Assembly (NCBI GenBank): GCA_040219355.1
Contig: JAVJSN010000015.1
Coordinates: 382,708-446,707 of the forward strand
From: Hyphomicrobiales bacterium
GTDB lineage: Bacteria > Pseudomonadota > Alphaproteobacteria > Rhizobiales > MH13
Direction of reading: 5' to 3'
DNA length: 64,000 bases
In this document: piece by piece, positions 9,055 through 26,013 of the stretch
How the letters are laid out: every line of letters starts with the position of its first letter
How positions within the stretch are numbered: the stretch's first letter is position 1
Notes under the pieces: generated by a model
Seen by the model: the letters and a program-made list of their open reading frames with translations, nothing else
Databases searched by the model: none
What the model was told of the DNA's origin: nothing
Program-made: the position numbers and the translations under genes

Positions 9055-10005
9055 CTAACTGCGCCATAGTGCGTTTTGCTCGTGCCTCAGGATCGTGTCG
9101 GCAAGCGTGGTGAACTCGCGCACGATGAACTGATGGAACCGCCGAACAGTCGGCCCTAGCGGAACATCGGCGCGTGTCAAAAGCCCCAAGTTCCGTTCCG
9201 GATGACCGATCTTGATGGAGAGCGCCGACAGCATTTTCTGTCGACGCAGCGTGAAAACCACAGAGTATGGCAGGATGGTGAGCGCGTCGGAGCGTTCGAG
9301 AATGTTGATGATCGACGTTAGCGAGCCGCCCGAAAAACTCACGCGGAAATCGCGCATTCCGATGCTGGAGAGGACGCTGCGCAAATCTTCATAAAGCGGG
9401 CTGTCCGTCGGCGGTGCGATCCAGGGGTAGGGAGCAATGTCGGACAGTGTCACCGACGTGCGATTGGCGACGGGATGCGTCGCCCCGCAGGCAATTACAT
9501 TGCGACCAGGCAGGATGTCTTTGAACGAAAAGTCGCTTGGGATGGCATCCACTTTCATTGGGCAAATCGCAACGTCGAGTGTGCCAGCCTCAAGCTTTTC
9601 CATCAGGTCTTGGGCATAATTGTAGGACTGGTCGATGCGCACGTCCGGGTGACCGTTCTGAAACTCTGCAATCATGCCGGAAATGACGCCGTCCATGAAA
9701 ATCGGAGATCCGCCAACGCGCACCATGCCGGAGCGTCCATCAAGGTAGCGTTTGACGACGTCTGATGCAGCCTTATTGGCGGCCAAGACCTTTCGTCCTT
9801 CGGCGGCCAGCGCCAGACACAGTTCAGTCGGCTGAAGAGGGCGTTTGTTTTTCTCAAACAGGCGGGAGCCGACCCGCGCCTCCAGAAGCGAGAGCGTCCG
9901 CGATACGCTGGGCTGCGATTTGCCAAGCGCCTCGGCCCCTTCCGTCAAACCACCAGAATCCACGATGGCAGCGACGATCTCAAGGTGGCGCGGGTCAAAT
10001 TTCAT
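9055..10005 (-). CDS. LysR family regulator, divergent from the aromatic operon
   Basis: N-terminal HTH (GGLTEGAEALGKSQPSVSRTLSLLE...LFE) plus a substrate-binding domain. Confidence 0.93.
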   Translation of the reverse strand: MKFDPRHLEIVAAIVDSGGLTEGAEALGKSQPSVSRTLSLLEARVGSRLFEKNKRPLQPTELCLALAAEGRKVLAANKAASDVVKRYLDGRSGMVRVGGSPIFMDGVISGMIAEFQNGHPDVRIDQSYNYAQDLMEKLEAGTLDVAICPMKVDAIPSDFSFKDILPGRNVIACGATHPVANRTSVTLSDIAPYPWIAPPTDSPLYEDLRSVLSSIGMRDFRVSFSGGSLTSIINILERSDALTILPYSVVFTLRRQKMLSALSIKIGHPERNLGLLTRADVPLGPTVRRFHQFIVREFTTLADTILRHEQNALWRS

Positions 10006-10018
10006 AACGTGAAGTTAT
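10004..10018. promoter_or_regulatory. Putative LysR recognition site ATAAC-N5-GTTAT (T-N11-A dyad) overlapping the lysR start codon
   Basis: ATAACGTGAAGTTAT is an interrupted palindrome with T-N11-A spacing in the divergent promoter. Confidence 0.65.
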
Positions 10019-10119
10019 ATTAACGCTCGCGAATTGGATCAAGTGACGGAATTTGACGTGCTAGCGTTCCCTTAATGAGAAGAGCAAGCGCTCACTAAGG
10101 GCGCCGTCCGGGAGGATCG

Positions 10120-11193
10120 ATGGCCCATTTCCAAAGCCAGTTTGAAGCCCAAAGCGCCGCGGTTCGCGTGCGATTCGGTGCTGGCTTGCGCCACAAGATC
10201 GAGGAGGAAATCGACCGGCTTGGCTGCGCACGGGCGCTGGTGCTTTCCACACCGCCTCAGGCCGACAGCGCGATGGACATGGCCGCCAGCCTCAACGGCA
10301 AGGCCGCTGGCGTTTTCACCAAGGCAGCCATGCACACCCCAGTCAATGTGACGGCGGAAGCCATCGCCCATGCGCAGAGTGTGGAGGCGGACTGCCTGGT
10401 GGCGCTGGGCGGTGGATCGACAACGGGCCTGGGTAAAGCCATCGCCTATCAGACGGATCTCCCACAGATCGTGATCCCCACCACCTATGCCGGTTCCGAG
10501 GCGACCGCGATATTGGGTCAGACCGAGAACGGTGTGAAGACCACGGTCACCGATCCCAAAATTCAGCCCGAAGTCATCCTCTATGATGCTGAGCTCGTTG
10601 CGACGCTGCCGGTGCCGATGACGGTGACGAGCGCGCTCAACGCGATGGCCCATGCCGCCGAAGCGCTTTATGCCGTGAACCGCAATCCCGTCTCGACGAT
10701 GCTGGCCATTGAGGGGCTATCGGCCTTCAAGAGCGCGCTGCCGAAGGTCATCGACAATCCGCAAGACCTAGAGGCGCGCGGCGAAACGCTTTATGGCGCC
10801 TGGCTATGCGGCACGGTGCTCGGCCAAGTCGGCATGGCGCTGCATCATAAGCTTTGCCACACGCTGGGTGGGTCGTTTAATCTCCCCCATGCTGAAACGC
10901 ACGCTGTCGTGCTGCCCCATGCCATTGCCTATAATGCCCGCGCCGTTGCCGGCCAGTTGCAACCCATCTGCGACATCTTTGGTGGCACGAACGCTGGCCA
11001 GTCTTTGCATGCATTCGCGGTGATGGTGGGTGCGCCGACCGCGCTGAAGGATCTCGGCCTCGACGAGAGCGATCTCGAAAGGGCGGCTGATCTAGCCACC
11101 AGCAAACCCTATCCCAATCCACGGCCTGTTGAGCGCGATGCGATCCGCAAGCTGCTCCAAGCCGCTTGGGCAGGCGACCCGCCCGTTCTCTGA
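10120..11193 (+). CDS. Maleylacetate reductase (iron-containing ADH family)
   Basis: AAMHTP, GGGSTTGLGKA, IPTTYAGSE, NAMAHAAEALY, MALHHKLCHTLGG, LPHAETH, YPNPRP. Confidence 0.93.
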   Translation: MAHFQSQFEAQSAAVRVRFGAGLRHKIEEEIDRLGCARALVLSTPPQADSAMDMAASLNGKAAGVFTKAAMHTPVNVTAEAIAHAQSVEADCLVALGGGSTTGLGKAIAYQTDLPQIVIPTTYAGSEATAILGQTENGVKTTVTDPKIQPEVILYDAELVATLPVPMTVTSALNAMAHAAEALYAVNRNPVSTMLAIEGLSAFKSALPKVIDNPQDLEARGETLYGAWLCGTVLGQVGMALHHKLCHTLGGSFNLPHAETHAVVLPHAIAYNARAVAGQLQPICDIFGGTNAGQSLHAFAVMVGAPTALKDLGLDESDLERAADLATSKPYPNPRPVERDAIRKLLQAAWAGDPPVL

Positions 11194-11232
11194 CAACCGA
11201 CAAACAACGAACCAATCATCTGGGAGGATGAC

Positions 11233-12498
11233 ATGATCACACGCCGCACACTTTTGAAGAGCACAGCCGCTGCCGCTGCAGTGAGTGCCTTCCCCATGCC
11301 GGCCATTGCGCAGGGTGCACGCATCAAGCTTGGCTATGTCAGCCCGCAATCGGGGCCGCTGGCTGCCTTCGCTGAAGCTGACAATTTCATCCTGTCGAAC
11401 TTCGCGCAGTCCGCGGTTGCTGAGAATTTTGAGGTTATCGTCAAGGACAGCCAGTCCAATCCCAACCGCGCGGCGGACGTCGCCCAGGAACTCATCATTG
11501 ATGATGAGGTGGACTTGCTGCTCGTTGCCTCCACCCCTGAAACCACCAACCCTGTTGCGACGACGGCAGAGTCCGAGGGCGTGCCGGTGATCTCAACGGT
11601 TGCGCCATGGCAACCCTGGTTCATTGGGCAGCAAGGTAATCCTGGCAACCCGGAAAGCTGGGAACCGTTCGACTATGCCTACCATTTCTTCTGGGGCCTT
11701 GAGGATGTGATCTCGGTGTTCACCGCCATGTGGGGTCAGCTCGATACCAACAAATCGGTTGGCGGCCTGTTCCCCAATGATGGCGACGGCAATGCCTGGG
11801 GCGATCCCAATGTCGGCTTCCCGCCGGTTCTCGATGCCCAAGGCTACACACTGACCGATCCAGGTCGTTACCAGAATCTGACAGATGACTTCTCTGCGCA
11901 GATCAATGCCTTCAAGCAGGGCAATGTGGAGATCGTCACCGGCGTGCCGATCCCACCGGATTTCACGACGTTTTGGAATCAGGCCAAGCAGCAGGGCTTC
12001 ACGCCGAAGGCTGCCTCGATCGGCAAGGCGATCCTGTTCCCGCAGGCCGTTGAAGCGTTGGGCGACAGCGGACATAACCTTTCCTCAGAGGTCTGGTGGT
12101 CACCCAGCCATCCGTTCTCGTCCTCGCTCAATGGCCTGACCGCTGGTCAAGTTGCTGAGGCCTACACCGGTGAAACTGGCAAGCAGTGGACGCAGCCCAT
12201 CGGCTTCGTGCACGCCCTGTTCGAGCTGGCCGTCGATGTGATGGGTCGGGTCGAAGACTCAAGCGATGGCGATGCGGTGGCCGAGGCCATTGCCGCGTCC
12301 AACCTCAACACCATTGTTGGTCCGATTGCCTTCAATGGTGCTGGTTTGCCGCCCTTTGCCGCGCGCAATATCGCCAAGACACCGCTCGTTGGTGGTCAGT
12401 GGCGCCTAAAAGATGGCGGAGGCTATGACCTCGTCATTGTCGACAATTCCGACCAGCTATCGATCCCCACAGGTGGAACGATGGAAGAGATTTCCTAA
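11233..12498 (+). CDS. Branched-chain/aromatic-type ABC transporter substrate-binding protein with Tat signal
   Basis: MITRRTLLK twin-arginine signal, IKLGYVSPQSGPLA, KDSQSNPNRAA. Confidence 0.88.
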   Translation: MITRRTLLKSTAAAAAVSAFPMPAIAQGARIKLGYVSPQSGPLAAFAEADNFILSNFAQSAVAENFEVIVKDSQSNPNRAADVAQELIIDDEVDLLLVASTPETTNPVATTAESEGVPVISTVAPWQPWFIGQQGNPGNPESWEPFDYAYHFFWGLEDVISVFTAMWGQLDTNKSVGGLFPNDGDGNAWGDPNVGFPPVLDAQGYTLTDPGRYQNLTDDFSAQINAFKQGNVEIVTGVPIPPDFTTFWNQAKQQGFTPKAASIGKAILFPQAVEALGDSGHNLSSEVWWSPSHPFSSSLNGLTAGQVAEAYTGETGKQWTQPIGFVHALFELAVDVMGRVEDSSDGDAVAEAIAASNLNTIVGPIAFNGAGLPPFAARNIAKTPLVGGQWRLKDGGGYDLVIVDNSDQLSIPTGGTMEEIS

Positions 12499-12511
12499 GC
12501 TTTATCAACGT

Positions 12512-12535
12512 GTACGGCGCCACACTGCGCCGTAC
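12512..12535 (+). terminator. Intercistronic hairpin after the SBP gene
   Basis: GTACGGCGC-cacact-GCGCCGTAC, a 9-bp perfect stem with no strong U-tract. It may be an mRNA stabiliser rather than a terminator. Confidence 0.55.
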
Positions 12536-12570
12536 GCTCCCTCTCTCAGCCAAGCCGCCTGGAGCGAGCC

Positions 12571-13290
12571 ATGACCATGCTTGCCTTACAAAACGTGTCG
12601 AAAAGCTTCGGCGCTTTGAAAGTGACGGACGATGTCACATTCGACGTGTCGGAGGGGCAGGCGCTCGGTATCATTGGGCCGAACGGTGCCGGTAAGTCCA
12701 CGTTGTTCAACCTGATCACCGGCAACATCCCGGCGGACAAGGGCAGCGTCCATTTTGAAGGACGCGACGTGACCAAAGTGCCCGCTATGCAGCGTTGCAT
12801 TTCAGGCATTGGGCGGTCATTTCAGATTCCGCAACCCTTCACGCATCTGACCGTCTACGAGAATTTGGTGGTGGCGGCGACCTTCGGGCGGCAGCGTGCC
12901 GAGAACGAAGTGATGCTCCAATGTGCAGTGATTCTGGAGCGGACCGAACTGATCGGCAAAGCCAACCAGACATCCGGCTCGCTGTCGCTGCTTGAGCGCA
13001 AGCGGCTGGAATTGGCCCGCGCCATGGCGACCCATCCGAAACTTTTGTTGCTCGATGAAATCGCTGGCGGGCTCACCGAAGGCGAGTGCCACGCGCTGGT
13101 GGAGACCATCAAGTCGATCCATGCCGAAGGCGTCACGATCATCTGGATCGAACACGTTCTGCACGCGCTCAACTCCGTGGTCGACCGGTTGCTTGTCCTC
13201 GACTTTGGCAAGGTGATCGGCATCGGCGATCCCGAAGTGATCATGGAGTCCAGAGAAGTCAAAGAGATCTATTTGGGAATCGAAATCTGA
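12571..13290 (+). CDS. ABC transporter ATP-binding protein (LivG-like)
   Basis: GPNGAGKST, LSLLERKRLELARA, LDEIAGGL, IEH. Confidence 0.93.
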   Translation: MTMLALQNVSKSFGALKVTDDVTFDVSEGQALGIIGPNGAGKSTLFNLITGNIPADKGSVHFEGRDVTKVPAMQRCISGIGRSFQIPQPFTHLTVYENLVVAATFGRQRAENEVMLQCAVILERTELIGKANQTSGSLSLLERKRLELARAMATHPKLLLLDEIAGGLTEGECHALVETIKSIHAEGVTIIWIEHVLHALNSVVDRLLVLDFGKVIGIGDPEVIMESREVKEIYLGIEI

Positions 13291-13997
13291 TGACGCTCCT
13301 CAAGACCAATAATCTCACCGCCCATTATGGTGATTTCCAAGCCTTGTTCGGCGTGGATATCGACCTCAACGAGGGCGAGACCATCGCGATCATCGGTGCC
13401 AACGGCGCGGGCAAGACAACGCTCATGCGGTCCATCGCGGGCGTGCTCATTAATGCCCTAGGTACTGTAACCTTCGATGGCCAAGCCATTGGCAATGCGA
13501 CCGCCGATGCCATCATGGCGATGGGTGTGGCGATGGTGCCGGAGGGGCGACGCCTGTTCCCATCCTTGTCGGTGGAAGAGAACCTGCTGATCGGCACCTA
13601 TGGCCGCAAGACTGGCGGGCATTGGGATCTGGAGACGGTCTACGACCTCTTCCCGATCCTTAAAGAACGCCGCAGCAACCCCGGCACGGCGCTGTCAGGC
13701 GGCCAGCAACAGATGGTGGCAATTGGCCGGGCGCTGATGAGCAATCCGCGCATTCTTCTGTGCGATGAAATCTCGCTCGGCCTCGCACCGGTGGTGATCC
13801 GCGACATCTACAAAGCGGTTCCCAAAATCAAGGAGGCCGGGGCCTCTCTCATCTTAGTCGAACAGGACATCGGCCAGGCGATGCAGGTTGCCGACCGCGT
13901 CTACTGCATGATGGAAGGCCGGGTGACGCTGTCGGGCACGCCCGATGATCTGTCGCGGGAGGCTATCCACGACGCTTATTTTGGAGCAGCGGCATGA
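13290..13997 (+). CDS. ABC transporter ATP-binding protein (LivF-like)
   Basis: GANGAGKTT, LSGGQQQM, DEISLGLAP. The ATG overlaps the upstream TGA. Confidence 0.93.
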   Translation: MTLLKTNNLTAHYGDFQALFGVDIDLNEGETIAIIGANGAGKTTLMRSIAGVLINALGTVTFDGQAIGNATADAIMAMGVAMVPEGRRLFPSLSVEENLLIGTYGRKTGGHWDLETVYDLFPILKERRSNPGTALSGGQQQMVAIGRALMSNPRILLCDEISLGLAPVVIRDIYKAVPKIKEAGASLILVEQDIGQAMQVADRVYCMMEGRVTLSGTPDDLSREAIHDAYFGAAA

Positions 13998-14857
13998 TCT
14001 GGGTTGATACCGTCCTTCAAGGCATTCTGCTTGGTGGGCTTTACGCGCTATTTGCCGCCGGCCTCTCGCTCGTGTTCGGCATCATGCGGCTGGTGAACCT
14101 GGCCCATGGCGACCTTATCGTGATGGGCGCCTATCTCATCTTGCTGCTGGTGACGATGACCGGTCTGTCGCCCTTCCTTGCGGCGGCGGTGGCGATCCCG
14201 TTCATGTTCATGCTTGGTTATGGCCTGCAGAAGTACATGCTCAACCGCGTGTTGGGCGAGGACATCCTTCCACCCTTGTTGGTCACATTCGGCTTGTCGG
14301 TTGTGTTGCAAAACGCGCTGCTGGAAGGCTTTTCCGCCGACAGCCAACGCTTGCCCACTGGCGCCTTGTCCACGGCTTCGGTTGAGGTGGCGGGTATCAA
14401 TCTTGGTGTGCTGCCACTGCTCACTTTTGGCTCGGCGATCTTGGTGATCGTTGGCCTCAACCAGCTCTTCTATCGCACCGAGCTTGGTCGGGCGTTTCGC
14501 GCAACGTCTGATGATCCCACCACGGCAAGCCTTATGGGTATCAAGCCTGCAAATATCTTTGCCAAGGCAACCGGCATCGCGATGATCATTGTGACCATCG
14601 CCGCGCTCTATCTTGGCATGCGCTCGAACTTCGATCCGAACATTGGCCCGGCTCGCCTCATCTACGCGTTCGAGGCGGTAATCATCGGCGGTCTTGGATC
14701 GCTCTGGGGCACGCTCCTTGGCGGTATCATCATCGGAGTGGCGCAGACGGTGGGTGCGGCGATCAATCCCGAGTGGCAAATCCTGGCCGGCCATGTCGCC
14801 TTCTTGGTGGTGCTGCTCATTCGTCCGCGCGGGCTTTTCCCGCGGGCCGTGGATTAG
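13994..14857 (+). CDS. ABC transporter permease (LivH-like)
   Basis: GGLYALFAAGLSLVFGIMRLVNLAHGD, IIGGLGSLWG, RPRGLF. Confidence 0.92.
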   Translation: MIWVDTVLQGILLGGLYALFAAGLSLVFGIMRLVNLAHGDLIVMGAYLILLLVTMTGLSPFLAAAVAIPFMFMLGYGLQKYMLNRVLGEDILPPLLVTFGLSVVLQNALLEGFSADSQRLPTGALSTASVEVAGINLGVLPLLTFGSAILVIVGLNQLFYRTELGRAFRATSDDPTTASLMGIKPANIFAKATGIAMIIVTIAALYLGMRSNFDPNIGPARLIYAFEAVIIGGLGSLWGTLLGGIIIGVAQTVGAAINPEWQILAGHVAFLVVLLIRPRGLFPRAVD

Positions 14858-14868
14858 GAGGCCGAGCG

Positions 14869-15972
14869 ATGGATGACCACACGACACCCTATGCCGTTCA
14901 CACCGGCACCAAAGCCTCCAAGATAGCGGGCATCTTCGCCCTCATCCTGATCGTGGTGCTGGTGGCGCTGCCCGCCTTCGCCTCGCGAAGCCTGATCCAG
15001 GACATGTTTTTCATCCTCACTATGCTGGTGCTGGCGCAATTCTGGAACTTGCTCGCTGGTTATGGTGGGCTTGTCTCCATCGGCCAGCAAGCCTTTGTTG
15101 GCATTGGTGCTTACGCCATGTTCGGCGTCGTGATTCTCGCCGGGCTTGATCCCATACCCGCGATCTTGCTTGGCGGCGTTGTGGCCGTGCTCCTTGCTAT
15201 CCCCACTGCGTTCTTCGCGTTCCGCCTCCAAGGCGCTTATTTCGCCATTGGTACCTGGGTGATCGCCGAGGTGGTGCGCCTTGTGACGTCACAATGGCAG
15301 GCCGTCGGCGGCGGCACGGGCACGTCGCTGCCGCGCTCGGCGACACGCGAACTGATGTTCGCCGAAGCGATTGAAAACCTCTTCGGCGTGCGCAGCGCGG
15401 CGGCGCGCGACATCCTCTCTTACTGGCTGGCCGTTATCTTGGCGGTGGCGACCATTGGCGGCATCTATTGGCTTCTGCGCACCAAACGTGGTCTCGCTTT
15501 GGCCGCCGTGCGCGACAACATCGAAGCGGCTAAATCGGTCGGGGTCGATGCTGGGCGCATGAAGTGGGTCGTGTTCCTGGTCGCAGCCTTCGGCACCGGT
15601 ATCGCAGGTGCCCTGATCTATCTGCAAAAGGCGCGCATCTCACCCGACGCTGCCTTCTCGGTTCAGGACTGGACGGCTTACGTCATCTTCATCGTGGTGA
15701 TCGGCGGCATCGGCACCATTGAGGGGCCAATCGTTGGCGTGCTGGTGTTCTTCATCTTGCAATCGCTGCTTGCCGACTATGGCACCTGGTACCTGATGAT
15801 TCTTGGCATCATCGGCATCATCATCATGCTTTTCGCGCCCAAGGGCCTCTGGGGTCTGGTCTCCAGTCGCACCGGCGTTGAGCTGTTCCCGGTACGCCGA
15901 CGCCTGACCGGCGGGGCGCTGGATACCCCAAAACCAAAGACACAACAGACTGAGGAAGTACCAAATGGCTGA
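14869..15972 (+). CDS. ABC transporter permease (LivM-like)
   Basis: WNLLAGYGGLVSIGQQAF, RLQGAYFAIGT, VVIGGIGTIEGP. GGAGG RBS upstream of the ATG at 14869. Confidence 0.92.
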   Translation: MDDHTTPYAVHTGTKASKIAGIFALILIVVLVALPAFASRSLIQDMFFILTMLVLAQFWNLLAGYGGLVSIGQQAFVGIGAYAMFGVVILAGLDPIPAILLGGVVAVLLAIPTAFFAFRLQGAYFAIGTWVIAEVVRLVTSQWQAVGGGTGTSLPRSATRELMFAEAIENLFGVRSAAARDILSYWLAVILAVATIGGIYWLLRTKRGLALAAVRDNIEAAKSVGVDAGRMKWVVFLVAAFGTGIAGALIYLQKARISPDAAFSVQDWTAYVIFIVVIGGIGTIEGPIVGVLVFFILQSLLADYGTWYLMILGIIGIIIMLFAPKGLWGLVSSRTGVELFPVRRRLTGGALDTPKPKTQQTEEVPNG

Positions 15973-17725
15973 CATCACGACAGACGTTCTCATCATCGGC
16001 ACCGGACCTGCCGGGTCTGCCACCGCAGCGCTTCTTTCCAGCTATGGCATCGAGAATATGGCGGTGAACCGCTACCGCTGGCTCGCTAACACGCCGCGCG
16101 CGCACATCACCAACCAGCGCACGATGGAAGTGCTGCGCGATCTCGGACAGGAGGTCGAAGACGAGGCCTATATGTTCGCAGCCGAGCAAGAGCTTATGGG
16201 CGAGAACGTCTTCTGCGAAAGCCTGGCGGGTGAAGAGATCGGCCGCATGAAGAGCTGGGGCAATCATCCGATGTCGAAGGCGGAGCACCTGCTCTCTTCG
16301 CCAACCTTCATGAACGATTTGCCGCAAACAATGATGGAGCCGCTGCTCTTCAAGACGGCCTGCTCACGCGGCACACAGGCGCGCATGTCGACCGAGTATC
16401 TGCGCCATGAACAGGACGCAGAGGGCGTGACCACAACCTGTCTTGATCGGCTGAGCGGCAAAGAGATCACCATCCGCTCGCGCTATTTGGTGGGCGCTGA
16501 TGGGGGCAACTCCAAGGTGGCCGAGCTGGAGAATTTGCCGTTTGAAGGGGAGATGGGCGTCGGCGGCTCGATGAACATCATCTTCAAGGCTGACCTTTCG
16601 AAATTCGTCGCGCACCGTCCTTCTGTTCTCTACTGGGTGGTACAGCCGGGCGCGGATGTTGGCGGCATCGGCATGGGATTGGTGCGCATGGTGCGCCCCT
16701 GGAACGAGTGGCTGATCGTCTGGGGTTACGACATCAATCAGCCTGCGCCAGACGTGACAGATGATTTTGCAACCAAGGTGGTGCGCGATTTGGTTGGCGA
16801 TCAGTCTATTGAGCCCGAGATCACCTCCGTTTCGACGTGGACGGTGAACAACATGTACGCCACAAATATGCAGGCGGGCCGGGTGTTCATTATGGGCGAT
16901 GCGGCGCACCGTCATCCGCCGTCCAATGGGCTTGGGTCGAACACCTCGATCCAGGATTCCTTCAATCTTGCCTGGAAGCTTGCCGCCGTGATCAAGGGCC
17001 AGGCGGGTGAGGCTTTGCTTGACAGTTACTCAGAAGAACGCGCCCCGGTGGCCAAGCAGATTGTGACCCGCGCCAACCAGTCTATCGGCGAGTTTGGGCC
17101 GATCTTCGAGGCGCTGGGTTTGACCGAGTCTACCGATCCAGAGGTCATGCAGGCCAATATGGACAAGCGCTGCGATGCCAACATGGAAGCCGAGCAGCAA
17201 CGCGCCGCGATCCGCGAGGCGATTGCGTTCAAGAAGTACGAGTTCGACGCCCACGGCGTGGAGATGAACCAGCGATATAAATCATCGGCTATCGTCACCG
17301 ATGGGCAGATGGAGCCGGCCTTTGAGCTCGACGCTGAGCTACACTACCAGCCGACGACCTGGCCCGGTGCGCGCATCCCGCACGCCTGGGTTTATGACCA
17401 TGATGGTGGCAAGCATTCCACGCTCGATCTTGTCGGTCGCGGGCAATTCACGATCCTCACAGGGATCAATGGCGAACCCTGGATGGATGCTGCAACGAAG
17501 GTGGGCAAGGAGTTGGGCCTCGACATCCGCGCGCATGTGATCGGGCCGCGCCGGGATATCATCGACCATCATGGCGATTGGGCCCGTGCCCGTGAGGTCA
17601 ATGAAGCCGGCTGCGTTCTGGTCCGGCCTGATCAACATGTCGCCTGGCGGGCAGAAGATATGGTGGAAAACCCCGAAGCTGAGCTTACTCGTGTCCTCAA
17701 CGCCCTCCTACACCGCGCAAATTAG
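15965..17725 (+). CDS. FAD-dependent aromatic monooxygenase (TfdB / resorcinol 4-hydroxylase-like)
   Basis: GTGPAG, TPRAHITNQRTME, GADGGNS, GDAAHRHPPSNGLGSNTSIQD, and a C-terminal thioredoxin-like LVRPDQHVAWR. Confidence 0.9.
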   Translation: MADITTDVLIIGTGPAGSATAALLSSYGIENMAVNRYRWLANTPRAHITNQRTMEVLRDLGQEVEDEAYMFAAEQELMGENVFCESLAGEEIGRMKSWGNHPMSKAEHLLSSPTFMNDLPQTMMEPLLFKTACSRGTQARMSTEYLRHEQDAEGVTTTCLDRLSGKEITIRSRYLVGADGGNSKVAELENLPFEGEMGVGGSMNIIFKADLSKFVAHRPSVLYWVVQPGADVGGIGMGLVRMVRPWNEWLIVWGYDINQPAPDVTDDFATKVVRDLVGDQSIEPEITSVSTWTVNNMYATNMQAGRVFIMGDAAHRHPPSNGLGSNTSIQDSFNLAWKLAAVIKGQAGEALLDSYSEERAPVAKQIVTRANQSIGEFGPIFEALGLTESTDPEVMQANMDKRCDANMEAEQQRAAIREAIAFKKYEFDAHGVEMNQRYKSSAIVTDGQMEPAFELDAELHYQPTTWPGARIPHAWVYDHDGGKHSTLDLVGRGQFTILTGINGEPWMDAATKVGKELGLDIRAHVIGPRRDIIDHHGDWARAREVNEAGCVLVRPDQHVAWRAEDMVENPEAELTRVLNALLHRAN

Positions 17726-17735
17726 GAGCTTTTCC

Positions 17736-18575
17736 ATGGCTTTGTTCACCGAAGAAACGTCTGTCACCGCCGTCAACAGCCGCATGGGCGAAGATATCAA
17801 TCCTCGTCTGGCTACGGTGATGGCATCGCTGGTGAAGCACCTTCATGCTTTCGCCAAAGATGTGGAGCTGACCCAGGAGGAGTGGGGCGTCGCCATCGAT
17901 TTTCTGACCCGTACTGGCCAGATGTGCGACGAGAACCGCCAGGAGTTCATCCTCCTCAGTGACACGCTGGGCGTGTCGATGCTGGTGGATGCCATCAACC
18001 ATCGCCGGCCAAGCGGCGCGACCGAAAACACGGTGCTCGGCCCGTTTCATGTGGCCGATGCCCCACACTATCCGATGGGGCAGAACATATCCCTAGATGG
18101 CAAAGGTGAGAGTTGCCTTTTTCAGGGCCGTGTTCTTGATCACCAGGGTAACCCAATCGAGAATGCCACAATCGATGTCTGGTGCGACAACTCTGATGGC
18201 TTCTACGACGTGCAGCAGCCGGACATTCAGCCGAAGTTTAACAATCGCGGCATCTTTACCACCGGCGCAGATGGCGACTACAGTTTTCGCGGCATCCGGC
18301 CCGTCGCCTATCCCATCCCCGATGATGGCCCAGTAGGGCAGATGCTCGCAGCACTTGGGCGACACCCAAACAGACCAGCGCACATGCATTTCATCGTCTC
18401 GGCACACGGCTACGAGCGCATCATCACCCACACCTTTGTCGATGGTGATGAATGGCTGACGTCGGATGCGGTTTTCGGGGTTAAGGCTTCGCTTATTTCG
18501 ACCATGGAACCTGGCGACGAGGGTGATACGATGTGGAAATCCTCCTTCGATTTCATCATGGTAGAGCAAGACTAA
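17736..18575 (+). CDS. Intradiol ring-cleavage dioxygenase (hydroxyquinol 1,2-dioxygenase-like)
   Basis: RQEFILLSDTLG, TENTVLGPF, and Fe ligands in GFYDVQQP, YPIP and RPAHMHF. Confidence 0.92.
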   Translation: MALFTEETSVTAVNSRMGEDINPRLATVMASLVKHLHAFAKDVELTQEEWGVAIDFLTRTGQMCDENRQEFILLSDTLGVSMLVDAINHRRPSGATENTVLGPFHVADAPHYPMGQNISLDGKGESCLFQGRVLDHQGNPIENATIDVWCDNSDGFYDVQQPDIQPKFNNRGIFTTGADGDYSFRGIRPVAYPIPDDGPVGQMLAALGRHPNRPAHMHFIVSAHGYERIITHTFVDGDEWLTSDAVFGVKASLISTMEPGDEGDTMWKSSFDFIMVEQD

Positions 18576-19415
18576 ATGGCAAACGACAAACCCTGCATCA
18601 TCTGTGTGGCGATCACCGGCTCACTGCCGACAAAGGCTAACAATCCGGCCGTTCCGATCACGGTGGATGAGCAGGTGGAATCCACGCATGAAGCCTTTGA
18701 GGTGGGTGCTACGATTTTGCATGCGCATGTGCGCAACGATGATCAAACGCCGTCCAGTGATCCGGAAAAATTTGCCCGGCTGAAAGAGGGTGTGGAAAAG
18801 CATTGCCCTGGCATGATCATTCAGTTCTCGACCGGTGGCCGATCCGGCGCTGGGCATGAACGCGGCGGCATGCTGCCGCTGAAGCCCGATATGGCCTCCC
18901 TATCGGTCGGCTCGAACAATTTCCCCAACCGTGTTTATGAAAACCCGCCGGACTTGATCGATTGGCTGGCCGGCGAAATGCGCACCTATGAGGTGAAGCC
19001 GGAAATCGAGGCGTTTGACCTCTCGCACATTCACCAGGCGGCAAAGATGCATGCCGATGGCCGCATTCCCGACACGCCGTACATTCAGTTTGTCATGGGC
19101 GTGAAAAACGCGATGCCCGCCGACAAGGATGTGTTTGATTATTATGTGAAAACCGTTGAGCGCCTGGTGCCGGGCGGGGAGTGGTGCGCGGCTGGCATCG
19201 GCCCTGCGCAGGTCTTGCTCAACGAATGGGCGGTGGCCGCTGGCGGGCATGCTCGTGCGGGTTTGGAAGACAATGTCCGGCTGGACAAAAGCACGCTTGC
19301 GCCTTCAAATGCGGCGCTCATCCAGCGGGTGGTTGATATCTGCGCGCGCCATGAAAGACCAGTGGCAACAACCGATCAGGCGCGGGAGATGCTTGCGCTG
19401 CGCCAGGCGGCTTAG
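18576..19415 (+). CDS. Beta-keto acid cleavage enzyme (BKACE/DUF849, Kce family)
   Basis: ICVAITG, Zn-binding HAHVR, FSTGG, SVGSNNF, RAGLEDN. Confidence 0.92.
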   Translation: MANDKPCIICVAITGSLPTKANNPAVPITVDEQVESTHEAFEVGATILHAHVRNDDQTPSSDPEKFARLKEGVEKHCPGMIIQFSTGGRSGAGHERGGMLPLKPDMASLSVGSNNFPNRVYENPPDLIDWLAGEMRTYEVKPEIEAFDLSHIHQAAKMHADGRIPDTPYIQFVMGVKNAMPADKDVFDYYVKTVERLVPGGEWCAAGIGPAQVLLNEWAVAAGGHARAGLEDNVRLDKSTLAPSNAALIQRVVDICARHERPVATTDQAREMLALRQAA

Positions 19416-20218
19416 GCGACGTCCTGCTCGCGGTTGAAGCCTGCCTCGTCGAAACCGTCCCGGCCGACAATCACTTGCGTGCCCCAGTCGTCGCAGGCTT
19501 TGGCCAGGTCGGCGGGGATCGGATCATCGGTGAAGAAGCATGAGACATCGGCGAGCGAGCCGACGCGTGCCGGTGCCTTGCGCTGAAACTTGATGTGGTC
19601 GGCGACCAGAAAGACGTCGCGGGCCTGGTTGATGATGCGCTGGGTGACGCCGACTTCCTGGATATCGAAGTCGAGAATGTCGCCCTCATCATCCAGGGCC
19701 GAGCACCCGATGATGGCGTAATCGAACTTGAACTGTTCAATGGTGTTGGTGGTTAGATTGCCAACCAGGCCACCGTCCGACCGGCGCAGCGTCCCGCCTG
19801 TGACGATCACCTGGCATTCATCGTTCGGGATAAGAATGGCCGCGACGTTCATGTTGTTGGTGACGACCAGCATGTCGCGGTGGGTGAGAAGCTCGCGCGC
19901 CACGGCCTCGGTCGTCGTGCCCAGATTGATGAACACCGAACAATCATCGGGCAGGGCGGCTGCGCAGGCGCGGGCAATCTCCAGCTTGCCGTCAAAGTTC
20001 AGGTTGCGACGCTGCTCATAGGCGATGTTGGCGGTCCCGGACGGCAAAACCGCTCCGCCATGCACCCGCTCGATCTTCCCTGCTTCGGCCAGCTCCGACA
20101 GATCGCGGCGGATCGTTTGTAGGGTGACGTCGAACCGCTCGGCCAGGCTTTCAACGGTGATCTTACCCTCGCGCCGGATGACATCGACGATCTCAACTTG
20201 CCTGAAGGTTTGGGCCAT
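19412..20218 (-). CDS. glpR: DeoR/GlpR family repressor
   Basis: LAERFDVTLQTIRRDLSEL, RVHGGA, GTTTE, GGTLR. Divergent from glpD. Confidence 0.88.
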   Translation of the reverse strand: MAQTFRQVEIVDVIRREGKITVESLAERFDVTLQTIRRDLSELAEAGKIERVHGGAVLPSGTANIAYEQRRNLNFDGKLEIARACAAALPDDCSVFINLGTTTEAVARELLTHRDMLVVTNNMNVAAILIPNDECQVIVTGGTLRRSDGGLVGNLTTNTIEQFKFDYAIIGCSALDDEGDILDFDIQEVGVTQRIINQARDVFLVADHIKFQRKAPARVGSLADVSCFFTDDPIPADLAKACDDWGTQVIVGRDGFDEAGFNREQDVA

Positions 20219-20293
20219 TTGCGGCTTCTCCATTGCTGATCATGATTTCATCACCTTCGGTTGTTGCCTGCAAGTTGTGCATCAATTGCGCGT

Positions 20294-20447
20294 TTCTGTT
20301 CGGTATTCGATTATGGGTATCAAATGGATGTTGTTCAGCGTCAAAATCGTTCAAAATTGACCGAAATTCGCATTTTCGGAAGCCTTTTCGGTACAAAAAA
20401 CATAGATAAAGCATTGCGATAAGAAAACCGAAAAAAAACGAAAAAAA
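20294..20447. promoter_or_regulatory. glpR-glpD divergent promoter with repeated TTCG/CGAA elements (putative GlpR operators)
   Basis: AT-rich intergenic region with TGTTCGGT, ATTCGAT, TTTTCG at 20373 and 20385, and CGAAAA at 20429 and 20439 (10-bp period). Confidence 0.4.
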
Positions 20448-20509
20448 CTATCTTCCTTTTTCTTGTTCAGCCTGCCATGCTTAGAAAAATTCTGAGGAGG
20501 GAGGCTCAG

Positions 20510-22153
20510 GTGCCGAAAAAACAAGGCACATCGGATATCCACGATCTTTTCGTGATCGGTGGCGGTATCAATGGATGCGGGATCGCACGCGATGCGGCCG
20601 GTCGCGGCTTGGATGTGGTCCTGGCTGAGATGGGCGATCTGGCGTCTGCGACCTCATCGGCTTCCACCAAGCTGTTCCATGGTGGCCTTCGCTATCTTGA
20701 GTATTTTGAGTTCCGCTTGGTGCGCGAGGCGCTGATCGAGCGCGAGGTGCTGCTGCGCGCCATGCCGCATATCAGCTGGCCGATGCGTTTCGTGCTGCCG
20801 TACCACAAGGATATGCGCTTTGAGAGCGACACGCCGACCTCGCGGCTGCTCAACGTATTCATGCCATGGATGAAGGGGCGGCGCCCCGCTTGGCTCATTC
20901 GTCTTGGCCTGTTTTTGTACGATTCCCTGGGTGGCCGGAAAATCCTGCCGGGTACAGCGACGCTTGATCTGCGCCAAGCGCCGGAAGGCGGGCCAATCAA
21001 TGATCGCTTTGAGCGGGCCTACGAATACTCCGATTGCTGGGTGGAAGACTCCCGCTTGGTGGTGCTCAATGCCCGCGACGCTGAAGCGCGCGGCGCCGCG
21101 ATCATGGTGCGTACCAAAGTCGTCGGCGCTGAACGCCATGCCGATCATTGGGATGTGACGACCGAGGATGTGGCCACTGGTGCCCGGCAGGGTTTCAAGG
21201 CGCGCATGCTGGTCAATGCCGGTGGGCCCTGGGTTGGCGACATTATTCACCAGAAGGTTCGGTTGAACTTATCTGAGGGCGTGCGGCTGGTGCGCGGCAG
21301 CCACATCGTGACGCGCAAGCTCTACGATCACGACAAGTGCTACTTCTTCCAGGGCACGGATGGTCGGATCATTTTTGCCATTCCCTATGAGCAGGACTTC
21401 ACGCTGATCGGGACGACCGACGCCGAGCATGAGGATGTATCAATTGCAGCCGAATGCACGCCGGAAGAGAGGGACTATTTGCTGCGATTCGTCAGCCAGT
21501 ATTTCAAACAAGAAGTGACGGTTGATGATGTGGTCTGGACCTACTCCGGTGTCCGGCCGCTCTACGATGACGGTGCGAGTTCAGCGACCGCGGCGACGCG
21601 TGATTACACGTTGAAGGTGGACAAGAATGGCGGTGCGCCGATCCTCAATTGCTTTGGCGGCAAGATCACGACCTACCGCCGGCTGGCCGAAAGCGCGCTC
21701 GATCTGATCGCCGAACAGTTCGATGGGCTGCCTGGTCCCTGGACGGCAGGTGTGGCGCTGCCTGGCGGCGATTTCGCCGTCGATGGCTTCGATCAACTGG
21801 TCAATGATTTGCGCCGCGATCATCCTTATCTGGAACATCGCCATGCCCGCCGTTTGGTGCGCGCTTATGGCACTGAGGCTTCCGCAATCCTTGGGGATGC
21901 GGCGGGCCACGCGGATCTAGGTGAAGATTTTGGCGCGACGCTCAGTGAGCGCGAAGTGCGGTGGCTTATGGATCATGAATATGCCCGTGCAGCCGACGAT
22001 ATCGTTTGGCGGCGGACCAAACTTGGTTTGAAACTCAAGCCTGAAGAAATTGCAGTGCTCGATACTTGGATCGACGACCATCGTGCCGCGCCTGGGGGCG
22101 CCAATGGTGGCGAGCCATCCGAGGCACGCAGCGCGCTCGGGGGAGGGCGGTAA
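20510..22153 (+). CDS. glpD: Aerobic glycerol-3-phosphate dehydrogenase
   Basis: IGGGINGCGIARDAAGRG, TSSASTKLFHGGLRYLE, RGSHIV, YSGVRPL, GGKITTYR, WRRTKLG. GTG start with a GGAGG RBS. Confidence 0.96.
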   Translation: MPKKQGTSDIHDLFVIGGGINGCGIARDAAGRGLDVVLAEMGDLASATSSASTKLFHGGLRYLEYFEFRLVREALIEREVLLRAMPHISWPMRFVLPYHKDMRFESDTPTSRLLNVFMPWMKGRRPAWLIRLGLFLYDSLGGRKILPGTATLDLRQAPEGGPINDRFERAYEYSDCWVEDSRLVVLNARDAEARGAAIMVRTKVVGAERHADHWDVTTEDVATGARQGFKARMLVNAGGPWVGDIIHQKVRLNLSEGVRLVRGSHIVTRKLYDHDKCYFFQGTDGRIIFAIPYEQDFTLIGTTDAEHEDVSIAAECTPEERDYLLRFVSQYFKQEVTVDDVVWTYSGVRPLYDDGASSATAATRDYTLKVDKNGGAPILNCFGGKITTYRRLAESALDLIAEQFDGLPGPWTAGVALPGGDFAVDGFDQLVNDLRRDHPYLEHRHARRLVRAYGTEASAILGDAAGHADLGEDFGATLSEREVRWLMDHEYARAADDIVWRRTKLGLKLKPEEIAVLDTWIDDHRAAPGGANGGEPSEARSALGGGR

Positions 22154-23241
22154 TGTCATTGAAATTAGAGGGTGTGTCGAAATCCGTTGCCGGCAAAACG
22201 CACATCTATCCAACAGATCTGGAATTGCAGAACGGCACGATGAACGTGCTGCTCGGGCCGACGCTGTCTGGAAAAACCACACTGATGCGCCTGATGGCAG
22301 GCCTTGATGTGCCCAATACCGGACGGGTTCTTTGGAACGGCGAGGATGTGACCGGTCAGCGCGTGCAGGACCGCAAGGTCGCCATGGTCTACCAGCAGTT
22401 CATCAATTACCCGTCGATGACGGTTTACGACAACATCGCCTCGCCGCTGCGCTTGCTGAAGATGGATGCTGGCGAAATCGACAAGGCCGTCCAAGAAGTC
22501 GCTGAGATGATGAAGTTGACGCCGATGCTTCAGCGCAAGCCGCTTGAGCTTTCCGGGGGTCAGCAACAACGGTGTGCGCTGGCACGGGCTCTAGTGAAGA
22601 ATGCCGGGTTGGTGCTGCTTGATGAGCCGCTCGCCAACCTTGATTACAAGCTGCGCGAAGAACTGCGCATCGAAATTCCCAAAATCTTCGAGCGATCGGG
22701 CGCGATTTTTGTCTACGCGACGACAGAGCCGGAAGAGGCTCTGCTGCTCGGCGGTAACACCGCGGCCATGTGGGAGGGTAAGATCACCCAGTTTGGTTTG
22801 ACCCCGTCGGTTTATCGCAAGCCCAACAATGCCACGACGGCGCGGGTGTTCTCCGACCCACCGATGAACTTCCTGGCTGTGACGAAAACGGGTGACACAC
22901 TTTCATTTGGTGATGGCCAGAAGGCGCCAGCGGTCAAACAGCTATCAGGCGTTTCTGACGGCCAGTATTTGGCCGGCTTCCGTCCGAACCATGTGGAGCT
23001 GCACCGCCATGTGGATGGTGCGATGGAGTTCAACACCAAGCTTTCGGTGACAGAGATCACCGGCTCGGAAACCTTCGTTCACCTCGATCACCATGGCGAG
23101 CCTTGGGTTGGTCTCATCCACGGCGTCCACGAGTTGGAGTTGGGAAAGGAGTTGAAGGTTTACCTGGATACCGACCACGCCTACATCTTTTCCCAGGATG
23201 GCGATCTGGTCGCGCCGGCGCCTTATGCGGAGGCCGCGTAG
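22153..23241 (+). CDS. glpS: Glycerol ABC transporter ATP-binding subunit
   Basis: [29 protein letters not shown]. Gene order matches the Rhizobium-type glp transporter. Confidence 0.8.
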   Translation: MSLKLEGVSKSVAGKTHIYPTDLELQNGTMNVLLGPTLSGKTTLMRLMAGLDVPNTGRVLWNGEDVTGQRVQDRKVAMVYQQFINYPSMTVYDNIASPLRLLKMDAGEIDKAVQEVAEMMKLTPMLQRKPLELSGGQQQRCALARALVKNAGLVLLDEPLANLDYKLREELRIEIPKIFERSGAIFVYATTEPEEALLLGGNTAAMWEGKITQFGLTPSVYRKPNNATTARVFSDPPMNFLAVTKTGDTLSFGDGQKAPAVKQLSGVSDGQYLAGFRPNHVELHRHVDGAMEFNTKLSVTEITGSETFVHLDHHGEPWVGLIHGVHELELGKELKVYLDTDHAYIFSQDGDLVAPAPYAEAA

Positions 23242-23243
23242 AC

Positions 23244-24340
23244 ATGGCCAAGATCACCTTTGAAAATTTGGCGCACTCCTATCTTTCCAACCCGTCGGGC
23301 GAGGACGATTACGCGCTCAAAGAAATCAACCATGATTGGGTGGACGGGGAAGCTTACGCGCTGCTCGGTTCATCGGGCTGCGGCAAGACCACCTTGCTCA
23401 ACATTATTTCTGGGCTCTTACAGCCGAGTCAGGGTCAAATTTTCTTCAATGGTGAAGATGTCACCCAGTCGCCAACCGCCGAGCGCAACATCGCGCAGGT
23501 CTTCCAGTTCCCTGTCGTCTACGACACGATGAGCGTGCGCGATAATCTGGCGTTTCCGCTGCGCAATCGCGGCGCCGATGCAGCTTACATCGCCCAGCGC
23601 GTACAGACCGTCTCCAAGATGATCGGCATGGAAGAGGAGCTTGGCCGCAAAGCACGTGGGCTGACCGCCGACGCCAAGCAGAAGATTTCGCTCGGGCGCG
23701 GCATGGTCCGCGAAGACGTCAACGCGCTCCTGTTCGATGAACCGCTCACCGTGATCGATCCGCATCTCAAGTGGGAGCTGCGCACGCAGCTGAAATCCCT
23801 GCATCACGAATTTGGGCACACGATGATTTATGTGACCCACGATCAGACCGAAGCACTGACCTTCGCCGACAAGGTGGTGGTTATGTATGACGGCCGCGTG
23901 GTGCAGATCGGCACACCCGAAGAGCTTTTTGAGACGCCTGAACACACCTTCGTTGGTTATTTCATCGGCTCGCCTGGCATGAATTTGCTCGATGCAACTG
24001 TTGATGGCGCAACGGCCCAGGTCGCCGGCGGATCGGTGGATCTTGGCCAGGGCTACGGCCCGGCAAGCGGCAAGGTGCAAATCGGTGTGCGCCCAGAATT
24101 CGTGCGTCTTGCCAGCGGTGGTGCCGGCCTGTCGGCAACCATCGACCGGGTTGAGGATGTTGGTCGCCACAAGATCGTGCGGCTCAGCCTGGCTGATGTT
24201 GGCCTGAGCGCAATTTTGGCGGAAGGTGAGCCGGTGCCTTCCTCTGACGTAAGAGTCACTTTCGATCCGTCGAAGATCAACATTTATGCCGACGACTGGC
24301 GTGTGGCGCCTCTTGAAGAGCAAAAAGGGGAGGCGGCCTG

Positions 24341-24341
<1 letters not shown>
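23244..24341 (+). CDS. glpT: Glycerol ABC transporter ATP-binding subunit
   Basis: GSSGCGKTT, LTADAKQKISLGRG, DEPLTVIDPHLK, THDQTEA. Confidence 0.8.
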
Positions 24342-25212
<871 letters not shown>

Positions 25213-25213
<1 letters not shown>

Positions 25214-26013
25214 TGATCAATCGTAAAGCCATCGTGATGGCGCTCTACCTGCTGTTTCTGTTTTTGCCGATTTACTGGCTCATCAATATGAGCCTGAAGA
25301 CAAATTCAGAAATATTGGGCGGGCTGACGCTGTTCCCGACCAATCTGACCTTTGCCAACTATGCGACGATCCTGACCGATCCCAGCTGGTATATGGGTTA
25401 TGTGAACTCGATCATTTACGTGACGATGAACACGGTCATCAGCTTGGCGGTTGCTTTGCCGGCCGCCTACGCTTTCAGCCGCTACAATTTCCTCGGCGAC
25501 AAGCATCTGTTCTTCTGGTTGCTCACCAACCGGATGGCGCCACCTGCGGTTTTCGCGCTGCCGTTTTTCCAGCTTTATGGGTCGGTCGGCCTGTTCGACA
25601 CGCATATTGCCGTCGCCTTAGCGCACACGCTGTTCAACGTGCCACTGGCAGTGTGGATATTGGAAGGCTTCATGCGCGGCGTGCCGAAGGAAATCGACGA
25701 GACGGCCTATATCGACGGCTACTCGTTTCCGCGCTTTTTCGTGAAGATTTTCATGCCGCTCATCGCCTCAGGCATCGGTGTGGCAGCCTTCTTCTGTTTC
25801 ATGTTTTCGTGGGTGGAACTGCTGCTCTCACGTACGCTCACGGCCACTGAAGCCAAGCCGATCGCTGCCATCATGACCCGGACCGTTGGTGCGTCCGGGA
25901 TCGATTGGGGCGTGCTTGCCGCAGCTGGTGTTCTCACCATCGTGCCGGGTGCTTTGGTCATCTATTTCGTTCGCAACTACATCGCCAAGGGCTTTGCCCT
26001 GGGCCGCGTTTAG
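25213..26013 (+). CDS. glpQ: Glycerol ABC transporter permease
   Basis: AYAFSRY, NRMAPPAVF, EIDETAYIDG, RNYIAKGFALGRV. Confidence 0.8.

Follow-up and report, generated by a model that had tools for sequence, protein, structure and literature searches.

The gene at positions 18576-19415 (forward strand) of a 64-kb window from the genome of a marine alphaproteobacterium of the Hyphomicrobiales (contig JAVJSN010000015.1; the window is the whole stretch of DNA that was analysed) most probably encodes the 3-oxoadipate exit of a hydroxyquinol operon. Its product, a predicted protein of the BKACE/DUF849 family, would take the place of PcaIJ and PcaF at this point of the pathway. The activities of the enzymes, the inducer of the operon and the part played by a distant ScoAB-type coenzyme A (CoA) transferase are predictions drawn from sequence comparison.

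The BKACE protein aligns with the DUF849 model PF05853 at 306.5 bits (gathering threshold 24.8) and covers profile positions 1-274 of 274. Furthermore, it reaches 484.9 bits against the NCBIfam equivalog model NF053568, named ‘3-oxoadipate:acetyl-CoA acetyltransferase’, whose cut-off is 350; residues 5-276 align with profile positions 2-273 of 274. The label of this model points to Cupriavidus necator H16. The protein and the NF053568 enzyme type have in common the full-length match, equal zinc and catalytic residues and the same predicted reaction, and differ in organism and operon.

A second curated member of the family, Kce, provides a useful comparison. Against the Kce equivalog model the score is 247.6 bits, under the cut-off of 382. 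In the alignment to the Kce structure 2y7d (182 bits), H49, H51, E145, R227, E231 and D232 are kept whereas Glu14 of Kce is replaced by Leu17. By the residue roles reported for Kce (reportedly in Bellinzoni et al. 2011), we take H49, H51 and E231 to be the zinc ligands (His-x-His plus Glu), E145 to be the catalytic glutamate and Glu14 of Kce to provide the acidic side chain to which the amine of the substrate binds. Both proteins belong to the same TIM-barrel family with common zinc ligands and catalytic glutamate, but they differ at the Glu14/Leu17 position, and lysine-fermentation genes are missing from the neighbourhood of the BKACE gene. A lysine-fermentation Kce was considered as an alternative assignment and rejected on the score below cut-off, the loss of Glu14 and the absent context. 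Scores of 470, 462 and 403 bits were obtained with the structural-genomics DUF849 structures 3fa5, 3chv and 3no5, respectively. Since these three align end to end, the fold of the BKACE subfamily has already been solved; the entries were deposited as function-unknown proteins and their names carry no ligand or activity.

The most direct evidence for the role of the gene comes from a related Hyphomicrobiales genome. Its operon (locus L142) comprises genes for a solute-binding protein, an ABC importer, the hydroxylase (77% identity) and the dioxygenase (61%), followed by pcaI, pcaJ and pcaF, so that pcaIJF stands at the position that BKACE occupies in the source operon. We interpret this pair of operons as a case in which one exit has displaced a non-orthologous one while the place in the operon stayed the same. 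In addition, the dioxygenase and reductase genes adjoin pcaIJF in loci L139 and L141, and pcaF immediately precedes the dioxygenase gene in L143.

The arrangement of the source operon is widely shared. The source genome falls in the same GTDB genus as CP121339.1 (Cohaesibacter sp.). At least ten other species of this genus show the full order of nine genes, as do Roseibium/Labrenzia, Ruegeria and Tabrizicola, which argues that it did not arise by chance. To describe the contexts of the orthologues, we considered those 80 BKACE loci of species genomes that are closest to the gene under study (77-97% identity). About 25 of them show the order reductase-importer-hydroxylase-dioxygenase-BKACE or a shorter form thereof (Cohaesibacter, Roseibium/Labrenzia, Ruegeria, Tabrizicola). 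About 33 are protocatechuate operons of the form pcaC..pcaG-BKACE-pcaB, with pca genes verified by NCBIfam; the orthologues in these operons, from Roseibium, Leisingera and others, are 77-82% identical to the BKACE under study. On a quick maximum-likelihood tree of the BKACE proteins (IQ-TREE), used solely for the interleaving of contexts, the hydroxyquinol and pca contexts interleave, and at least eight switches are needed per label. One tight subfamily has therefore been joined repeatedly to two pathways in which 3-oxoadipate is the only common metabolite.

The operon itself spans positions 10120-19415 on the forward strand, is tightly packed and probably LysR-controlled, and diverges from the gene of a LysR-type regulator. 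The regulator gene and the nine operon genes are as follows:

9055-10005, reverse strand: LysR-type regulator, likely activator of the operon (HTH_1 and LysR_substrate domains)
10120-11193, forward strand: maleylacetate reductase of the Fe-ADH family, operon gene 1 (Fe-ADH and ADH_Fe_C domains)
11233-12498, forward strand: periplasmic solute-binding protein with a twin-arginine-type leader (Peripla_BP_6, 104.7 bits)
12571-13290, forward strand: ABC importer ATPase 1 (ABC_tran)
13290-13997, forward strand: ABC importer ATPase 2 (ABC_tran; refined start, the ATG overlapping the preceding TGA by 1 nucleotide)
13994-14857, forward strand: ABC importer permease 1, LivH type (BPD_transp_2)
14869-15972, forward strand: ABC importer permease 2, LivM type (BPD_transp_2; refined start, the ATG lying behind AGGAGG)
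15965-17725, forward strand: single-component FAD phenol hydroxylase of the HbpA/TfdB group, 586 residues, presumed to form hydroxyquinol (FAD_binding_3 and Rng_hyd_C domains)
17736-18575, forward strand: hydroxyquinol-type intradiol dioxygenase (Dioxygenase_N and Dioxygenase_C domains)
18576-19415, forward strand: BKACE/DUF849 protein, predicted to be of the 3-oxoadipate:acetyl-CoA acetyltransferase type, 279 residues, final operon gene (PF05853; NF053568)

The five genes of the ABC importer lie between the reductase and the hydroxylase genes. At the distal end, the hydroxylase gene ends with TAG at 17723-17725, and the ATG of the dioxygenase gene follows 10 nucleotides on at 17736, preceded by AGGAG; this start was taken in place of the listed one at 17571, which makes the open reading frame too long. 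The TAA of the dioxygenase gene (18573-18575) then abuts the ATG of the BKACE gene (18576-18578) with zero spacer. Downstream, a convergent gene for a DeoR regulator occupies 19412-20233, and the stop codons of both genes overlap, which makes BKACE the last gene of the operon.

The enzymes encoded upstream of BKACE were compared with solved structures in the Protein Data Bank (PDB). The reductase matches the maleylacetate reductases 3w5s (427.5 bits) and 3hl0 (418 bits), and the first gene of the operon is predicted to encode a genuine maleylacetate reductase. We take 3w5s to be GraC from the resorcinol/gamma-resorcylate clusters of Rhizobium sp. MTP-10005. The dioxygenase scores 436.7 bits to the 6-chlorohydroxyquinol 1,2-dioxygenase 8r2x, 258 bits to PnpC (3n9t) and 243 bits to the hydroxyquinol 1,2-dioxygenase 1tmx, whereas catechol dioxygenases reach merely about 120 bits; by these alignments it is assigned to the hydroxyquinol type. 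The operon thus holds both the dioxygenase and the maleylacetate reductase, the two enzymes by which we recognise a hydroxyquinol pathway. The hydroxylase is related to HbpA (2-hydroxybiphenyl 3-monooxygenase, 607 bits) and TfdB (2,4-dichlorophenol 6-monooxygenase, 492 bits), and a profile search returned no curated NCBIfam equivalog for it. As a single ortho-hydroxylation would have to yield hydroxyquinol, resorcinol- or hydroquinone-like compounds are suggested as substrates; the high-affinity importer points to a polar or charged molecule, and the chlorohydroxyquinol and dichlorophenol names of the top solved matches make halogenated phenols possible substrates as well.

The first-pass annotation of the window, made from the sequence before the present analysis, had described the hydroxylase, dioxygenase and BKACE genes as coupled, a maleylacetate reductase as the leading gene and the operon as devoid of a CoA-transferase or thiolase. 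The first statement is borne out by the 10-nucleotide and zero-spacer junctions and the second by the match to 3w5s at 427.5 bits. The third agrees with the domain annotation of the open reading frames in the window, in which no CoA-transferase or thiolase gene was found between 9055 and 20233.

Other exits for 3-oxoadipate were sought family by family in the genome assembly, which amounts to 3.73 Mb in 18 contigs and is 99.4% complete. No PcaF (TIGR02430) over the cut-off was found in the genome; the top match is a generic thiolase with 367.4 bits against a cut-off of 597. The sole PcaH match in the genome is the operon's own dioxygenase, pcaHG is absent, and neither PcaB nor PcaD is present over the cut-off. 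Because pcaH, pcaB and pcaD are all lacking above their cut-offs, the hydroxyquinol operon is the only recognisable source of 3-oxoadipate in this genome, and the BKACE is predicted to be its only dedicated consumer.

A second BKACE paralogue is encoded on contig 8 (L009:1334-2233, forward strand). On both NF053568 (98 bits) and the Kce model (132 bits) it stays under the cut-off. Its gene stands immediately upstream of a TRAP transporter (DctP/DctM) and beside a response regulator. As a back-up 3-oxoadipate enzyme this paralogue was rejected on its NF053568 score and its TRAP transporter neighbour.

The distribution of the two exits was then surveyed in a sample of 201 genomes of the same order, in which a close dioxygenase was defined by E ≤ 1e-83. 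PcaF occurs in 113 of the 201 genomes, and the other five genomes sampled from the source genus gave no PcaF. A close dioxygenase is encoded in 35 genomes, which divide into 24 with PcaF only, seven with BKACE only, four with both and none with neither. Six of the seven BKACE-only genomes, the source genome included, belong to the source genus. These counts are a pattern and not a statistic, since related genomes are not independent.

Taken together, these data lead to the following model of the pathway. A LivK-type ABC system would import a polar phenolic compound, and an ortho-hydroxylation would turn this compound into hydroxyquinol (1,2,4-trihydroxybenzene), with or without further substituents. 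Ring opening would give maleylacetate, and its reduction 3-oxoadipate. The zinc-dependent BKACE would then acetylate the acetate unit freed from 3-oxoadipate, with acetyl-CoA as the donor and with formation of succinyl-CoA and acetoacetate; it would thereby replace both the 3-oxoadipate CoA-transferase (PcaIJ) and the 3-oxoadipyl-CoA thiolase (PcaF). An unlinked ScoAB-type transferase may subsequently convert acetoacetate and succinyl-CoA into acetoacetyl-CoA and succinate, and a generic thiolase may cleave acetoacetyl-CoA into two acetyl-CoA, one of which would prime the next round. The net reaction, from 3-oxoadipate and CoA to succinate and acetyl-CoA, would be identical to that of the classical route. 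It is because ScoAB would use exactly both products of BKACE that BKACE, ScoAB and thiolase would match the net reaction of PcaIJ and PcaF.

The components needed for the later steps are encoded in the genome. On another contig lies one PcaI/ScoA plus PcaJ/ScoB pair whose scores exceed the cut-offs of pcaI_scoA and pcaJ_scoB, subfamily models that cover both types of transferase. The pair adjoins a mannose-1-phosphate guanylyltransferase gene, and aromatic genes are not among its neighbours. ScoB is closest to succinyl-CoA:3-ketoacid CoA-transferases, that is to the acetoacetate type (289 bits to 3cdk). Of 12 genomes of the genus, 11 retain this pair; the exception is a genome that is 78% complete. 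No acetoacetyl-CoA synthetase over the cut-off was found in the genome. By these assignments, acetoacetate could be consumed by the ScoAB-type transferase together with the generic thiolase.

A related arrangement is seen in two protocatechuate operons (L097 and L111) of the order pcaG-BKACE-scoA-scoB-(pcaD)-pcaB, whose transferase subunits are 72-88% identical to ScoAB of the source genome. This linkage hints at BKACE and ScoAB working together.

The conversion of 3-oxoadipate and acetyl-CoA to succinyl-CoA and acetoacetate had been put forward in the first-pass annotation, and the NF053568 score (484.9 bits against 350) supports it, at the level of a family prediction. The accompanying claim that BKACE stands in place of PcaIJ/PcaF gains support from three sides: PcaF over the cut-off is lacking in the source genome and the five other sampled genomes of its genus, pcaIJF and BKACE displace each other in the comparison with L142, and orthologues lie between pcaG and pcaB. 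A check of the genome for pcaIJF, suggested there as well, yielded no PcaF over the cut-off and a PcaIJ-family pair that is present yet unlinked to aromatic genes. The notion of a ‘one-enzyme exit’ had to be narrowed: it holds for the cleavage step by BKACE, but acetoacetate still needs activation and cleavage by the unlinked ScoAB-type transferase and a thiolase.

Several points weigh against the assignment of the BKACE as a 3-oxoadipate exit, and three alternatives were considered. The first group concerns the substrate. The NCBIfam name of NF053568 rests on a homologue and not on the protein encoded at 18576-19415. BKACEs reportedly accept a variety of beta-keto acids, and the substrate ranges of their groups overlap (PMC4922564). 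Depending on the inducing substrate of the operon, the intermediate could be a substituted 3-oxoadipate. The enzyme might cleave another beta-keto acid of the pathway, either maleylacetate (to maleyl-CoA and acetoacetate) or a 3-oxoadipate that has kept the halogen or methyl group of a substituted phenol. Such a substrate would fit the overlapping ranges, the name of the best solved match of the dioxygenase (a 6-chlorohydroxyquinol dioxygenase) and the resemblance of the hydroxylase to 2,4-dichlorophenol hydroxylase. However, maleylacetate already has a consumer, as the reductase leads the operon; the 77-82% identical orthologues reside in protocatechuate operons, which proceed without maleylacetate or halogenated intermediates; and the NF053568 equivalog score lies well above the cut-off. 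We therefore regard a different substrate as unlikely.

The second group concerns the transferase. ScoAB shares its subfamily models with PcaIJ, and together with the generic thiolase the classical route could in principle be run. According to this explanation, the unlinked ScoAB-type transferase and the thiolase carry out the PcaIJ and PcaF steps, and BKACE is accessory or redundant. Both subunits do exceed the shared pcaI_scoA and pcaJ_scoB cut-offs, and BKACE and PcaF occur together in four of the sampled genomes. On the other hand, the pair has no aromatic-pathway neighbours, ScoB is nearest to transferases of the acetoacetate type, and the sole thiolase attains 367 bits where PcaF requires 597. 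Moreover, the gene that is translationally coupled to the pathway is that of BKACE and not of the transferase, and four genera have retained it at this place. A redundant BKACE appears decidedly improbable to us.

The third group concerns the contexts of the orthologues. About 22 of the 80 closest loci show neither aromatic context. In 12 loci, from Thalassovita, Thalassobius, Lutimaribacter, a Pseudooceanicola and metagenome-assembled genomes of Rhodobacterales (L060:6862-8547, L061-L064, L072, L078, L099, L107, L108, L110 and L126), an orthologue of about 80% identity follows directly after the gene of an acyl-CoA dehydrogenase of 561 residues, and aromatic genes are absent nearby. The dehydrogenase carries an N-terminal extension of about 170 residues. 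This third context of the orthologues suggests that the BKACE subfamily may have a second use or a second substrate. In the extreme case, the BKACE of the source operon would be a co-transcribed passenger with a role outside the aromatic pathway, for instance in the acyl-CoA-dehydrogenase-linked process of the other genera, and the second BKACE copy found outside the operon in some species of the source genus would be in keeping with such a role. Yet the stop of the dioxygenase gene and the start of BKACE abut with zero spacer, the position of BKACE is conserved over several families, pcaIJF occupies this very position in L142, and none of the 35 genomes with a close dioxygenase is devoid of both exits. 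A mere passenger is, in our estimation, highly improbable.

The preferred reading, in which BKACE acts as the 3-oxoadipate exit of the hydroxyquinol operon, can be related to known systems. The BKACE screen behind the 3-oxoadipate:acetyl-CoA acetyltransferase type is reportedly that of Bastard et al. 2014 (Nat Chem Biol 10:42). This study is cited as the origin of the enzyme type in two reports on Methylobacterium (PMC8963497 and PMC12379598). Both propose that DUF849 replaces PcaIJ/PcaF in the pca clusters of this genus, and the second describes a pca operon with a DUF849 gene (kce) in place of pcaIJ/pcaF (PMC12379598). M. extorquens PA1 is reported to metabolise vanillate and protocatechuate when given the van and pca clusters (PMC12379598).

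The Methylobacterium operons carry DUF849/kce between pcaG and pcaB and share the proposed replacement with the source operon. They differ in the upstream branch, which is that of protocatechuate (pcaHGBCD) in Methylobacterium and that of hydroxyquinol, with hydroxylase, hydroxyquinol dioxygenase and maleylacetate reductase, in the source operon. Classical hydroxyquinol operons, such as those of L142 and Rhizobium sp. MTP-10005, end in or rely on pcaI-pcaJ-pcaF, whereas the source operon ends in BKACE. No literature linking the BKACE/DUF849 family to the hydroxyquinol pathway was found, which is weak evidence of novelty as the coverage of subscription journals was incomplete. The BKACE described here is an unremarkable representative of an enzyme kind that is already known, in a less-described pathway context; it is a small extension of the published bypass.

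This extension has consequences for the reading of genomes. Genomes like the source would be scored as unable to finish the hydroxyquinol/beta-ketoadipate route because pcaIJF is missing; the pathway reconstruction is corrected when the curated enzyme and the ketone-body enzymes close this gap. Furthermore, protocatechuate operons are the main setting for which the role of the BKACE subfamily has been proposed to date, and the occurrence of the same operon with either pcaIJF or BKACE at its end is a clean comparative argument for that role in cell physiology. More speculatively, marine Alphaproteobacteria might usually leave both 3-oxoadipate branches via a self-priming loop of BKACE, ScoAB and thiolase and not via PcaIJF. 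The operon might in addition serve a marine phenol that is polar or halogenated, for example an algal derivative of resorcinol, hydroquinone or bromophenol. We put this combination forward as a tentative idea and consider it less likely than not.

Regulation of the operon was considered from the LysR gene and the intergenic region. The top NCBIfam match of the regulator is PcaQ, at 107 bits and far under the cut-off. Its gene stays beside the operon in the same genus and in Ruegeria. At the start of the LysR gene, on the edge of the intergenic region between the LysR and reductase genes, there is a perfect palindrome, ATAAC-N5-GTTAT (10004-10018), which occurs a single time in the 64-kb window. 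Its half-sites are conserved, with a variable spacer, in eight distinct loci of the genus and three loci of Ruegeria. It is a likely LysR operator and fits the T-N11-A type. A scan for promoters and terminators over 9800-20500 gave counts no greater than in shuffled sequence and was not used. As to the importer, the TAT_signal score of the solute-binding protein is 22.0 bits, slightly below the cut-off of 22.7, and a PDB search returned no solved relatives of this protein.

Some genomes hold more than one copy of BKACE. Single Roseibium genomes (L068/L095/L104, L073/L120 and L088/L133) carry two to three copies that are about 80% identical to one another, one in a pca operon and one in a hydroxyquinol operon. 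The hydroxyquinol operons of Roseibium start with an additional dioxygenase-like gene (41-43% identity) ahead of the reductase gene. Within the source genus, a second copy outside the operon is found in L037 (genome G003), where it contains an in-frame TAA and lies beside genes for a succinate-semialdehyde dehydrogenase and an aminotransferase, and in L050 (genome G011), where it lies beside the DeoR regulator gene.

Two peculiarities of the sampled assemblies deserve mention. Locus L085 (JAHVJD010000004.1), titled Nocardioides marinus (Actinomycetota), shows the order pcaC-pcaG-BKACE and falls in the pca clade with Cribrihabitans and Leisingera, with a branch length of 0.011. Mislabelling or contamination of this assembly is probable. 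Five genomes of 1.3-1.4 Mb from one genus of the order (G021, G119, G152, G182 and G211) are above the PcaF cut-off, and in G021 a hydroxyquinol-type dioxygenase and a ScoB match were obtained as well, which is unexpected for such small genomes.

Lastly, the region downstream of the operon (19412-26013) encodes the DeoR regulator, a GlpD-like FAD dehydrogenase (20477-22153), two MalK-like ATPases and two permeases. It is a locus for glycerol-3-phosphate-type uptake and oxidation and is unrelated to the hydroxyquinol operon.

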